A stretch of DNA of 44,305 nt from the IMG/VR virus record IMGVR_UViG_3300037200_000146, positions 1 through 44,305 of that record. One strand, given 5' to 3'. The DNA comes from a virus. Each line of letters starts with the position of its first letter. Position 1 is the first letter of the stretch. Below are positions 19,626 to 22,259 of this stretch, one piece after another. Below the pieces are notes generated by a model. That model saw nothing but the letters and a program-made list of their open reading frames with translations, ran no database searches and was not told the DNA's origin. The position numbers and the translations under genes were made by a program.

Positions 19626-19780
19626 GAAAAGGACCATTGAAGGGGAGAAGTCTTAATTCAAAAAAAGACAAAAACGGTAATCGCGGTTGGGAAGAGGTCA
19701 AATCTAAAAAGGATCGCGTAAAGGCAAAAAAAGAAAAGAACAAAATTTATAAAGCTTCAAGATTCGGGGGGATCAAATGA
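19622..19780 (+). CDS. Hypothetical 52-aa highly basic protein (below the ORF-track cutoff)
   Basis: Reads MRKGPLKGRSLNSKKDKNGNRGWEEVKSKKDRVKAKKEKNKIYKASRFGGIK, with ATGA overlaps at both ends. Confidence 0.4.
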   Translation: MRKGPLKGRSLNSKKDKNGNRGWEEVKSKKDRVKAKKEKNKIYKASRFGGIK

Positions 19781-20229
19781 ACGACATGGGGAATTGGATG
19801 CCGGGGATGACGCTTGAGATGGTTGAAAAGGCTACAATTCAAGCCGCTTTTCATTTCTATAGAGGAAATAAAACACAGACATCAATTGCTCTTGGATGTT
19901 CCGTTAGAACTCTAGATACAAAATTGGAGAAGTATGAAGCCGACCGAGAACTTGCAAGAATCCGATATGAACAAGAAAAACGAGAACGAGCAAGTATGCT
20001 CGAACGAATGCGTGGAATCCACCCCACAGAAGCCGTTGAATCGTCGAGGTCAAGCCTTTACCATGCCGATTCCGGGGTTCACCTGGAATCCCCTACTTTC
20101 ACTGGAAAGGAACCGGCCGTGCCCGTGCCTGAGCGGCCGCAAGTTCAAGAGATGTTGTCTAATGAAGCTTCCACGGGCAGTCCCGGAAAAGGAAGCAGCA
20201 AGATTCCGCGCGCTAATAAGAATGGGTAA
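19777..20229 (+). CDS. Fis-type HTH (HTH_8-like) DNA-binding protein
   Basis: LEMVEKATIQAAFHFYRGNKTQTSIALGCSVRTLDTKLEKYE matches the Fis/NtrC C-terminal HTH pattern. The C-terminal half is low-complexity. Confidence 0.6.
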   Translation: MNDMGNWMPGMTLEMVEKATIQAAFHFYRGNKTQTSIALGCSVRTLDTKLEKYEADRELARIRYEQEKRERASMLERMRGIHPTEAVESSRSSLYHADSGVHLESPTFTGKEPAVPVPERPQVQEMLSNEASTGSPGKGSSKIPRANKNG

Positions 20230-20332
20230 GGTTGTTTTCAACACGTTGGAGAACGATTCTGTTTTAAAGGAATTAGGATATGAATTACCAAAGCCTAAAG
20301 AATCCAATGAAAAACTCCCAGACCCTAGTTGA
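19934..20332 (+). CDS. SEC-C motif protein (start uncertain; ATG 20063 is plausible), overlapping the HTH gene in another frame
   Basis: RNRPCPCLSGRKFKRCC is a SEC-C metal-binding motif. Confidence 0.5.
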   Translation: MKPTENLQESDMNKKNENEQVCSNECVESTPQKPLNRRGQAFTMPIPGFTWNPLLSLERNRPCPCLSGRKFKRCCLMKLPRAVPEKEAARFRALIRMGKVVFNTLENDSVLKELGYELPKPKESNEKLPDPS

Positions 20333-22259
20333 ACTCCCATCGATAAAAGAAACGACGGAGGATTATGAAGCGCTCGAAAGCTACATCAAAAAGATCTTCA
20401 AGAAAGAAATCTATATCCCCCTTATTAGTGAATTTGGTGGAAATAGTAGGGTCATTAAGAACTCGGCAGAAACCTTATTATCTGCAATACAAAGTGGGAG
20501 AATACAGTTTTATCGTGGCGTGTTCTCAGGCGAGTTCAACTCGGAAATCTCAAAAGAGTTAAAAAAGCTTGGCGCTACATGGGATAGGTCTAAAAAGGCA
20601 TGGAAGCTACCATCGGCTGATTTACCGCTTGATGTTCGCATGGCCATCTCAGCCTCAGCCTCCCAGTTTCAGAGAAAGCTTGAAAAAATAGATAGAATTT
20701 TGGCGGCCATAAGCCCGGAAGAGTTAGCCGGATCAATGCAAATGACCAGGTTCTTTGATTCAGCTTTATGGAAGGTTGAAAAGTCCTTAAAAAAATCCAT
20801 GAAGAATCTTGTTGTTCAACCTGAGCTAACAAAGGAACAAAGACAACGTATCGCTGATGAATGGCAAAACAACATGAAGCTTTGGATTCATGATTTCACC
20901 GAAAAAGAAATAAAAGAACTTCGAGGTAAGATCCAAAAGACCATATTCGCCGGCAATCGATACGAATCAGCCATTAAGACAATTCAAAAATCCTATCAAG
21001 TTTCAGCCAATAAAGCCAAGTTCTTAGCCAGACAAGAAACGATGCTTTTGATGACTAAGTTCAAGGAAACAAGATACCAAGATGCAGGCGTTAACGAATA
21101 CAAATGGCGCTGTGTAAAAGGAACCCCGCTTCATCCAGTTCGTCCCATGCACAAGGCGCTTAATGACAGGTCCGAGAAGGGTGAGATATTTCGATTCGAT
21201 CAACCTCCCGTTGATGATCCAAAAGGCGGAAGACATAACCCCTCACAAAATTATAATTGCTTACCTGGCAACACAGTCGTGAGTTTCGACCAACCTGTAT
21301 TGAAGATATTTAAACGTAGATACACGGGAAAAACGGCCATACTTGTCACGGACGACAATGTGGTCATTGAGACGACAGGAAATCATCCTATATTGACGAA
21401 CTCCGGCTGGCGTCCCGCCAATGAGGTCAATCTCGGTGATTATCTTTTCAAGCGCGTAGGGGAAAGCATCGATATCAAAAAGATGAATGGCCAATATGTG
21501 GAAGCCGGCATTGAGGATATATTTAGTGCGCTTTCTATTTGTTCTCCAATAATGGTTGACAGACTTTCCAGTTCTGATTTCCACGGCGATGTCATTGAAG
21601 ACAAGCAAGTCGACATTATAAGTCCCAATCGCGAATTGATTCTTAACGGGATAACCGAGCTTTATGAAATGTTCGAAGAATTCCTTTTCAAGGGGACCTT
21701 CTCTTCTCGAACAAGATTTAGCTCTTTTGATAAGACTACTACGACGTGGGGGCTTGCCTCTGACAGCTTCATTGGCTTTTTTAACGAGCTTACGCTTTTC
21801 CTTCAAAGACATTCTCCCGAATCTAAGTGTATTAGCCTCCGAGCCAGATCTCTTCTTGATCCCACAAAGCTTAAGCCATCTGGAAATAGTACTCCGTTTA
21901 ACTCTATATTTTTTAGCGACGGCAAGTTCACTCATCCCAAACTTGTAATCCTTAATAGCGTGATGATTAATGGGTGTTGTATTCCAGGAAACGAATCTAC
22001 CGACTCTTTCGATAGAGACTCCCCTTTCTCTAAGGCGCTCGCTGAGCAAGTCGGGATTGACTTTAAGTCTGCGTCCGATTTCAGCAATAGTGCGCTTGGA
22101 GCCTCGATAAAGCCTCTCCGCATCATCGATAAGAGTTTCAGGGATTTTAGCGGTCACGTTTACAACCTCCAAACTGGTATGAATTGGTATTATGCTAATA
22201 GCCTAGTAATGGCAAATTGTCGCTGCACGGCCGTTCCTGTTGTGCGATTCAAAAAGTAA
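20280..22259 (+). CDS. MuF / SPP1 gp7-like minor head morphogenesis protein, intein-containing
   Basis: YKWRCVKGTPLHPVRPMHKALN..., then GGRHNPSQNYN|intein|CRCTAVPV. The NCRC ending typical of the family is restored only after excision. Confidence 0.75.
   Translation: MNYQSLKNPMKNSQTLVELPSIKETTEDYEALESYIKKIFKKEIYIPLISEFGGNSRVIKNSAETLLSAIQSGRIQFYRGVFSGEFNSEISKELKKLGATWDRSKKAWKLPSADLPLDVRMAISASASQFQRKLEKIDRILAAISPEELAGSMQMTRFFDSALWKVEKSLKKSMKNLVVQPELTKEQRQRIADEWQNNMKLWIHDFTEKEIKELRGKIQKTIFAGNRYESAIKTIQKSYQVSANKAKFLARQETMLLMTKFKETRYQDAGVNEYKWRCVKGTPLHPVRPMHKALNDRSEKGEIFRFDQPPVDDPKGGRHNPSQNYNCLPGNTVVSFDQPVLKIFKRRYTGKTAILVTDDNVVIETTGNHPILTNSGWRPANEVNLGDYLFKRVGESIDIKKMNGQYVEAGIEDIFSALSICSPIMVDRLSSSDFHGDVIEDKQVDIISPNRELILNGITELYEMFEEFLFKGTFSSRTRFSSFDKTTTTWGLASDSFIGFFNELTLFLQRHSPESKCISLRARSLLDPTKLKPSGNSTPFNSIFFSDGKFTHPKLVILNSVMINGCCIPGNESTDSFDRDSPFSKALAEQVGIDFKSASDFSNSALGASIKPLRIIDKSFRDFSGHVYNLQTGMNWYYANSLVMANCRCTAVPVVRFKK
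21258..22217 (+). mobile_element. Intein (320 codons) with no recognisable sense-strand endonuclease domain
   Basis: N-terminal region CLPGNTVVSF...TTGNHPILTNSGW. C-terminal region GHVYNLQTGMNWYYANSLVMAN|C, with Ala in the penultimate position. Confidence 0.7.
21261..22172 (-). CDS. Antisense ORF nested in the intein: HTH + PD-(D/E)XK (Vsr/DUF559-like) putative homing endonuclease
   Basis: 303 aa. HTH-like segments are KRTIAEIGRRLKV and MSELAVAKKYRVKRSTISRWLK. The nuclease core is LEKEFFEHFIKLGYPVKNQFAIGTYNVDLLVFNDIAVEIRTGK...KYILNAGFHILAIH. Confidence 0.6.
   Translation of the reverse strand: MEVVNVTAKIPETLIDDAERLYRGSKRTIAEIGRRLKVNPDLLSERLRERGVSIERVGRFVSWNTTPINHHAIKDYKFGMSELAVAKKYRVKRSTISRWLKLCGIKKRSGSEANTLRFGRMSLKEKRKLVKKANEAVRGKPPRRSSLIKRAKSCSRREGPLEKEFFEHFIKLGYPVKNQFAIGTYNVDLLVFNDIAVEIRTGKSVNHYWRTNRKRTKYILNAGFHILAIHLFDIDAFPYALEKIITEIDLIGGTPAGVRQYRMISCRLNDHIVVRDKYGRFSRVSTFKYLQYRLVETHDCVAR

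Follow-up and report, generated by a model that had tools for sequence, protein, structure and literature searches.

Can an intein that is translated without interruption carry its homing endonuclease on the other strand of the same DNA? This question arose at a MuF-like head gene in IMG/VR record IMGVR_UViG_3300037200_000146, derived from an uncultured phage, which we analysed as a single stretch of 44,305 nucleotides (nt), hereafter the window. A plus-strand open reading frame (ORF) at 20280..22259 reads as a protein of 659 amino acids (aa) that contains an intein, and the minus strand of the intein is open as well. We found that the antisense frame is a real gene under strand-specific purifying selection; in addition, we observed both ORFs intact, openness on two strands, conserved translation signals, two folds and the insertion site. 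We consider it likely that the locus is a mobile class-1 intein at the ...N|CRC site of MuF, whose homing endonuclease is a separate, codon-aligned antisense gene. Antisense transcription, protein splicing, the cleavage target and homing are steps that we infer.

A contiguous intein and an antisense frame in the same codon register

The N-extein matched the Pfam profile Phage_Mu_F (E=3.7e-10) and the NCBIfam profile phageSPP1_gp7 (TIGR01641, E=3.7e-13). Its closest intein-less homologue was gp47 of Bdellovibrio phage phi1422, with 46.6% identity across the N-extein. The phi1422 gp47 junction reads ...DYN|CRCMARPIVRF and matches the ...NYN|CRC that results when the window's intein is removed in silico. 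The ...N|CRC insertion site is common to most relatives, whose DNA consensus at the site is CCnGG...AAn|TGcCGnTGt; the reconstituted intein-less site at the window locus is ...CAAAATTATAAT|TGTCGCTGCACG.... A first-pass annotation, made from the letters alone, had delimited a 320-codon intein at 21258..22217 and had proposed that its excision recreates an NCRC ending. Hint profile and fold matches bear out the intein, and the search for an intein-free MuF homologue, which that annotation had suggested, returned phi1422 gp47 with the same type of junction.

The intein reads CLPGN...TGNHPILT...GHVYNLQT...LVMAN, followed by the +1 Cys, and the profile phrog_15127 spans all of it. In the AlphaFold model of the sense protein, the Hint lobes had pLDDT (predicted local distance difference test) values of 71-94 (N lobe 71-93, C lobe 76-94). 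The N-lobe values of 71-93 reach about codon 69 (protein residue 395), and further on they range from 40 to 77. The N-lobe boundary at codon 121 is thus approximate, because beyond codon 69 or so the pLDDT is mixed and the wobble pattern described below is mixed or antisense-dominant. Foldseek neighbours of the model were almost all intein splicing domains (probability 0.99-1.0), including the mini-intein structures of Mtu RecA, Ssp/Npu DnaB and gp41-1.

Between the lobes, intein residues 126-281 had a pLDDT of only 28-46, and not one residue of the sense alignment reached a 50% consensus over the mirror-linker region (Table 1). We considered a cryptic endonuclease in the sense centre and ruled it out on these two grounds and on the lack of any profile match there. 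A split intein was also ruled out, since neither the window nor any of the 80 fetched relatives has a break in the sense frame. These results support a contiguous intein whose roughly 160 central sense codons are unselected filler, as the first-pass annotation had supposed.

The first-pass annotation had also reported a 303-codon antisense ORF, running from a TTG at 22172 to 21261 in the same triplet phase as the sense frame, with a TAA stop that is the complement of intein codon 2 (TTA). The ORF, its phase and its stop are as described. Its start, however, is likely the GTG at 22157 rather than the TTG, giving 298 aa, because relatives begin with ATG at the aligned position. In 49 of 52 relatives, the stop of the antisense ORF lies opposite sense codons 2-12. 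From this stop position and from the limits of openness given below, the antisense gene spans the intein from block F to block A. It thus extends past the filler and through the whole N-terminal splicing lobe.

The relatives come from several searches. A search with the sense-intein alignment found more than 509 IMG/VR loci, of which 80 were fetched; the codon analyses of relatives used 52 non-redundant sequences. The antisense ORF was uninterrupted in 80 of the 80 fetched loci and matched the family hidden Markov model (HMM) with E values of 1e-40 to 1e-109. With the antisense protein as query, tblastn returned matches in 117-118 GenBank phages, nearly all of them on the other strand from a gene annotated as head, MuF or minor-capsid. 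The hosts included Edwardsiella, Aggregatibacter (Aaphi23), Klebsiella, Vibrio, Salmonella, E. coli, Cronobacter, Acinetobacter, Pseudomonas, Gordonia and Mycobacterium. An exhaustive phmmer search gave 1498 clusters of related proteins, mostly about 290-300 aa in length, and 594 of the clusters reached E<=1e-10; a word-indexed protein search returned no match for the antisense protein and only one for the sense intein.

Openness and selection on the two strands

In the codon-aligned register, the stops of one strand are the TTA, CTA and TCA (Leu/Ser) codons of the other. Because each stop mirrors a single Leu or Ser codon, synonymous choice alone keeps both frames open. These codons account for 21 of the 340 extein codons in the window versus 2 of the 320 intein codons, and the latter two lie at the extreme ends. 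At the 5.1% rate of the phage's other genes, the probability of 313 consecutive codons free of them is 7e-8. When either protein (sense intein or antisense product) was re-encoded synonymously with the phage's codon usage, the mirror frame stayed open for 298 codons in 0 of 5000 trials; the open runs averaged 56 and 64 codons and peaked at 168 and 199. Among 14 other window genes, the mirror frame stayed open for at most 139 codons. The first-pass annotation had predicted this avoidance in both frames and had proposed the shuffled control, and both came out as it expected.

The same was true of the relatives when stop-mirror codons were counted among all Leu and Ser codons. They made up 266 of 1702 in the N-exteins (15.6%) and 23 of 138 in the last 20 intein codons, upstream of the antisense start (16.7%). 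Intein codons 13-105 had 0 of 722 and the central region 0 of 1907, so that the sense codons under the antisense ORF had 0 of 2629 versus about 16% in the flanks. Over the whole ORF, the antisense strand itself had 0 of 2159. Openness is selected on both strands, and the constraint starts and stops at the boundaries of the antisense ORF.

Mirror frames of homologous DNA always resemble each other, and we therefore chose tests able to tell the two strands apart. The register sets sense codon position 1 opposite antisense position 3, the wobble position. At intein codons 1-60 and 281-320, the entropy was highest at sense position 3, the pattern of sense selection. At codons 121-280, by contrast, sense position 1 had a higher entropy (1.74-1.85) than position 3 (1.33-1.65), which is the pattern of antisense selection; codons 61-120 were mixed. 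The pattern was unchanged when sense proteins guided the alignment. Four closer pairs of sequences agreed with it, with 0.257 differences per site at the antisense wobble versus 0.128 at the sense wobble in the central region and the opposite pattern in the Hint ends.

Residue by residue, conserved antisense positions varied in their synonymous codons while the mirrored sense residues drifted. Antisense G74 was encoded by GGG (18 sequences), GGA (18), GGC (9) and GGT (6), and the sense residue opposite was P, S, A or T. Antisense R88, R103 and R121 each used at least five Arg codons. Among alignment columns at intein codons 126-285, 21 were conserved on the antisense strand only and none on the sense strand only. 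At codons 1-60, the corresponding numbers were 0 and 10.

One short patch was constrained on both strands. Every nucleotide of 21579-21590 was frozen in the 52 diverse relatives; the sense F-H-G-D is invariant or nearly so, and the antisense (V/I)-A-V-E (residues 190-193) used GAA in 52 of 52, GTG in 47 and GCC in 47. In contrast, the wobble position of the catalytic E157 was free (GAA 32, GAG 19). With the patch frozen on both strands, both proteins seem to need these four codons. In the sense model, the F-H-G-D patch had low AlphaFold confidence.

The other end of the antisense protein behaved differently. Over antisense residues ~241-298 (21264-21437), in the window and its relatives, the frame is kept open up to the intein start without selection at the residue level.

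The antisense protein, its start signals and its relatives

The antisense product, modelled with AlphaFold2 from a 66-sequence alignment, had a mean pLDDT of 92.1. Two three-helix helix-turn-helix (HTH) modules come first in the model, then a helical linker, then an alpha/beta core of the nuclease (171-247) and finally a hairpin at the C terminus. The sense model was built from an alignment of database proteins with 35 rows, and the pLDDT contrast between the sense centre and the antisense product is imperfectly matched because this alignment was shallower than the antisense one (35 versus 66 rows). The best Protein Data Bank (PDB) match in Foldseek was 3r3p, the catalytic domain of I-Bth0305I (probability 1.0, template-modelling score 0.64-0.67). 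Full-length structural matches in BFVD were phage proteins named 'DNA mismatch endonuclease', NUMOD and DUF559 proteins.

Profile searches pointed the same way. The family profile matched 3hrl (DUF559-like, E=1.3e-4), 3r3p (E=8.4e-4) and HTH proteins in the PDB, among them 2lvs, a protein with two HTHs, over residues 8-100 (E=9e-5). Searched as a single sequence, the antisense protein had no meaningful match in the PDB, so that a profile was needed. Among 66 members of the antisense family, Pfam matches were found to HTH_23 (36 of 66, best 3.5e-12), HTH_7 (27 of 66), MTES_1575 (15 of 66) and DUF559 (7 of 66). The window protein keeps all family-invariant residues (R88, A128, E157, Y180, D183 and E193). 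These models and profiles support a protein with two HTH modules and a Vsr/DUF559-type nuclease, a predicted homing endonuclease, and they agree with the two HTH segments and the PD-(D/E)XK core that the first-pass annotation had recognised.

The proposed GTG start is the complement of the block-F His codon CAC (22155-22157). The mirrored His codon was CAT in 46 of 52 relatives and AAT in 2; in 4 it was CAC, which yields the GTG seen in the window. The nearby block-F Leu codon was CTC in 31 of 52 and CTT in 11 of 52, which places GAGG or AAGG 8 nt upstream of the antisense start in 42 of 52. The start region of the window copy reads GGAGGttgtaaacGTG. Promoter-like sites (score >=9) 5' of the antisense start were modestly enriched across relatives, at 33% versus 9%.

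The coordinates of the sense and antisense features are collected in Table 1.

Table 1. Sense and antisense features of the intein-containing MuF gene, in window coordinates
Feature	Position	Strand	Remarks
N-extein, MuF/SPP1 gp7-like head morphogenesis	20280..21257	+	Ends ...HNPSQNYN; first 326 residues of 659 aa
Class-1 intein	21258..22217	+	960 nt, 320 codons (Cys1...Asn320), codons 327-646 of the ORF; single contiguous frame
N-terminal Hint lobe	21258..21620	+	Codons 1-121; block A Cys1, block B, F-H-G-D motif
Cys1 nucleophile (block A)	21258-21260	+	Invariant in alignments
Block B TGNHPILT	21375-21398	+	T40-G-N-H43; T40, N42 and H43 invariant in alignments
Invariant sense motif F-H-G-D	21579-21590	+	Intein codons 108-111
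Sense mirror linker	21633..22100	+	Codons ~126-281; in-frame, no predicted fold, no sense-level conservation
C-terminal Hint lobe	22101..22217	+	Codons 282-320; blocks F and G; sense-type wobble pattern
GHVYNLQT (blocks F/G)	22152-22175	+	
Terminal Asn320	22215-22217	+	
C-extein	22218..22259	+	CRCTAVPVVRFKK plus stop; carries the +1 Cys (CRCTAVPV)
Antisense homing-endonuclease gene (predicted)	21261..22157	-	GTG to TAA, 298 aa
Weak candidate promoter	22189..22216	-	TTTGCC, 16 nt, CATAAT; -10 ends 31 nt before GTG; speculative
Shine-Dalgarno GGAGG	22166..22170	-	8 nt 5' of GTG; mirrors block-F Asn-Leu-Gln codons
First HTH module	22026..22139	-	Antisense residues 7-44; helices 7-19, 24-31, 35-44
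Second HTH module	21867..21965	-	Antisense residues 65-97; Pfam HTH_23 E=3e-5 in the window protein
Vsr/DUF559-like PD-(D/E)XK core	21417..21689	-	Antisense residues 157-247
Family-invariant core residues	E157 (21687-21689), Y180, D183 (21609-21611), E193 (21579-21581)	-	Alignment columns
Antisense C-terminal tail	21282..21392	-	Residues 256-292; predicted long beta-hairpin; overlaps the first ~45 N-lobe codons

The related phages differ in site, length and annotation. A second MuF insertion site (...RTST|C...), about 25 residues upstream, is used in E. coli phage fEg-Eco06, in Snoke and in Mycobacterium phage Sejanus. The inteins at this site in E. coli Kagunaviruses and in Sejanus are related to that of the window and have related antisense genes. 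Salmonella phage W5 has a MuF close to that of fEg-Eco06, yet its intein is at a ...HPN|CRS site. Antisense ORFs are shorter (~233-255 aa) in Salmonella phage W5, in Cronobacter phage ES2 and in most Salmonella Jerseyvirus matches, and the first HTH module appears to be missing from these short forms, since their tblastn matches begin at query residue ~56-68. Idiomarinaceae phage 1N2-2 has AGG at the antisense start position and a degenerate block F (TPVYTVE), with the frame still open from stop to stop. Judging from the sequence, this antisense gene may be a decaying endonuclease copy.

Existing annotation of the two partners is inconsistent. The Snoke record annotates the intein and not the antisense gene, and in Salmonella phage PK1 the antisense ORF is annotated as a hypothetical protein overlapping the head gene. 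Where we looked up the context of annotated antisense proteins, they lay at contig ends with a cut head gene, which explains why gene callers chose the antisense ORF there. Two such proteins are named 'very-short-patch-repair endonuclease' by IMG.

Immediately 5' of the MuF gene, the window has two overlapping plus-strand ORFs (150 and 132 aa) at 19777-20332. Directly 5' of its MuF homologue, phi1422 has a gene whose annotated product is a putative sigma-54-dependent transcriptional regulator. The structural module of the window (12.8-40.6 kb) is wholly plus-strand except for the antisense gene.

Mechanism, rival readings and known systems

If the intein is mobile, as we propose, the late head-gene mRNA would be translated straight through it. 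The Hint lobes (codons 1 to ~121 and ~282 to 320) would then fold and splice MuF, and the ~160 codons in between, which give no more than the endonuclease gene's mirror translation, would form a structureless loop. An antisense transcript would be translated from the mirrored block-F His codon, behind a Shine-Dalgarno sequence that mirrors the neighbouring Asn-Leu codons. Its product, which has two HTH modules to bind DNA, a linker of helices and a Vsr/DUF559-like PD-(D/E)XK nuclease, would cut intein-less MuF alleles of co-infecting phages at or near the insertion site ...N|CRC. Recombinational repair would copy the intein and the endonuclease gene together (gene conversion). Mobility fits with three observations: the closest MuF is intein-less, related inteins use a second MuF site, and the antisense gene is confined to the intein.

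Several observations weigh against this mechanism. The steps of antisense transcription and translation, and a cleavage target near ...N|CRC, enter it as expectations, and a sigma-70 scan found zero minus-strand promoters, a custom scan adding only the weak candidate in Table 1. The window copy begins with GTG and not with ATG. On the single window sequence, the nuclease families scored below gathering thresholds, and the catalytic residues form an E-D-E set, which falls short of I-Bth0305I's full EDxHD. The antisense C-terminal tail is open (0 of 722 stop mirrors), yet shows no antisense-specific residue conservation; its modelled hairpin may be an echo of sense Hint covariation, a mirror artefact, because only the sense frame shows residue-level selection there. 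On the sense side, the intein scored 23.5 bits with Pfam Intein_splicing (cutoff 35.8) and 21 with TIGR01445 (cutoff 24.5) as a single sequence; precomputed PF14890 matches exist for many relatives. Block G lacks its penultimate His and ends in Ala-Asn, a position at which many relatives have His-Asn and others Ser-Asn or Arg-Asn. Inteins without the penultimate His are known to splice, and its absence is not disqualifying.

These points bear on three rival explanations. The antisense ORF might be a non-coding by-product, the mirror of a conserved sense protein, open by accident. The sense frame has to remain open anyway, and since homologous DNA resembles itself in the mirror frame, the tblastn and HMM matches are not independent evidence against such a by-product. 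It does not account, however, for a wobble position that changes strand in the intein centre, for antisense residues kept through synonymous codon changes while sense residues vary, or for the lack of stop mirrors under the ORF when the flanks have about 16%. The conserved CAT/ATG start with its Shine-Dalgarno sequence, the pLDDT of 92 versus 28-46 in the sense centre, and the independent matches, by profile and by fold, to nucleases and HTH proteins already known also speak against it. We regard this explanation as strongly disfavoured and extremely improbable. A by-product apart, the element could be a relic decaying in the window phage, with either the endonuclease (GTG start) or the intein (penultimate Ala) inactive. 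Only 4 of 52 relatives share the GTG, and a database search with the single antisense protein found just one copy of the exact element, in IMG/VR contig UViG_3300037136_000114, which the search identified as the window itself. Relic status is nevertheless very unlikely given that the window protein retains every family-invariant residue, that a strong GGAGG stands 8 nt 5' of the GTG, that both frames are intact across about 300 codons, and that blocks A and B are preserved, as are the terminal Asn and the Cys after it.

The remaining rival accepts the antisense protein as real and assigns it a role other than (mainly) homing, such as a phage-competition or exclusion nuclease or a DNA-binding regulator housed in the intein. 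The departure of the catalytic motif from EDxHD would be consistent with this, as would the statement, in the 2025 preprint of Gosselin et al. discussed below, that some VSR-like intein groups look vertically inherited. On the other hand, the antisense gene is confined to the intein and coextensive with it at all loci, and its architecture is the same as that of the homing enzyme I-Bth0305I. Related inteins with antisense genes at two MuF sites, together with an intein-less closest MuF homologue, are what homing predicts. We consider such a non-homing role unlikely and retain the mobile intein with an antisense homing endonuclease.

The first-pass annotation had assumed that known inteins carry their endonuclease as a sense-frame domain and that the arrangement was unprecedented. 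Both assumptions are outdated, as antisense LAGLIDADG and VSR-like cases have been published. Gosselin, Arsenault and Gogarten (bioRxiv 10.1101/2025.01.02.630785) describe anti-sense VSR-like endonucleases in full actinobacteriophage inteins, with AlphaFold models, an HHpred match to 3R3P and minor capsid proteins among the hosts, and state that such antisense ORFs typically lie outside the splicing domain. The window element shares with theirs the contiguous intein, the separate antisense endonuclease ORF with a VSR-like fold matching 3R3P, the in-frame homing-endonuclease region that AlphaFold leaves unstructured, and the MuF-like minor capsid host. Gordonia and Mycobacterium phages of their collection are sequence relatives. 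Antisense ORFs align to the window protein in Gordonia phage Malisha (E 1e-17) and in Mycobacterium phage Sejanus (E 8e-13). Because the window protein belongs to the same sequence family as these, the element joins the recently described kind, first reported in that preprint. It differs in coming from an uncultured phage whose MuF is closest to that of a Bdellovibrio phage, in a family that reaches phages of Salmonella, E. coli, Klebsiella, Vibrio, Aggregatibacter, Acinetobacter and Pseudomonas and more than 500 IMG/VR contigs, and in an ORF that starts inside block F and covers the whole N-terminal lobe.

Other known systems share parts of this organisation. According to the same preprint (bioRxiv 10.1101/2025.01.02.630785), antisense LAGLIDADG endonucleases in inteins (Ssp DnaX and a Chloroflexus SpoVR-like protein) are credited to Gorbalenya 1998 and Gogarten 2002. 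A later preprint (bioRxiv 10.64898/2026.09.14.751524) reports a cyanobacterial dnaX intein whose endonuclease is out of frame and under frame-specific selection. As in the window, the endonuclease of these inteins lies outside the intein frame, the in-frame centre is disordered and purifying selection is frame-specific. Unlike in the window, the nuclease family is another one, the host genes are cellular, and the dnaX endonuclease lies in the same-strand +2 frame according to the 2026 preprint. The dnaX intein endonuclease is described differently in the two preprints, which come from the same laboratory; it is the 2026 one that gives a +2 ORF.

I-Bth0305I, the EDxHD Vsr-like homing endonuclease (Taylor et al. 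2011, PMC3239194; PDB 3R3P), resembles the window protein in its N-terminal HTH/NUMOD region, its C-terminal Vsr-like domain and its phage-borne association with introns or inteins, but it is intron-encoded and in sense orientation. In the window family, E157 aligns with the first Glu of EDxHD and D183 with its Asp (mutated to Ala in 3R3P), and the third invariant residue is E193. The His and the final Asp of EDxHD are not conserved, and a conserved Arg lies near that position. The fractured genes of Dassa et al. 2009 (PMC2677866) consist of split inteins with a free-standing endonuclease gene, Vsr-like or GIY-YIG, between the halves. They too have a free-standing Vsr-like gene at the endonuclease position of an intein, in phage-like DNA, but that gene is co-oriented and the intein is split into two trans-splicing halves, whereas here the gene is antisense and the intein contiguous. 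The long antiparallel overlapping genes of enterohaemorrhagic E. coli and Pseudomonas (PMC9927249, PMC8850804) also yield two proteins from opposite strands of the same DNA. Those pairs are young and weakly conserved; hundreds of divergent phages conserve the window pair, each partner of which has a fold that can be recognised.

As far as we found, the breadth beyond actinobacteriophages, the codon-aligned register, the block-F start with its Shine-Dalgarno sequence, the ORF over the whole N-terminal splicing lobe and the four-codon patch frozen on both strands are apparently additional to the published description. Annotation pipelines miss such antisense genes and call them only where a contig end truncates the head gene, and inteins with an antisense endonuclease are likely mis-scored as decaying or mini-inteins. 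Culturable carriers exist among Salmonella Jerseyviruses and E. coli Kagunaviruses, in which expression, splicing and homing are directly testable. The locus gives a clean case from nature of long antiparallel dual coding, with selection legible separately for each strand, and it suggests a general rule that a codon-aligned register permits dual openness through synonymous choices alone. On balance, we lean towards an ancient, obligate bidirectional module of ~900 nt in hundreds of unrelated phages of Proteobacteria and Actinobacteria, as opposed to a rare accident of actinobacteriophages alone, encoding two folded proteins on opposite strands, with a start and Shine-Dalgarno sequence made from block F, a frame kept open through the N lobe and a frozen four-codon patch. 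If this is true, it would be, of the antiparallel overlapping gene pairs known from prokaryotic viruses, the best conserved. An intein, neither split nor fused to its enzyme, may thus gain mobility from a free-standing endonuclease gene by hosting it on the opposite strand.

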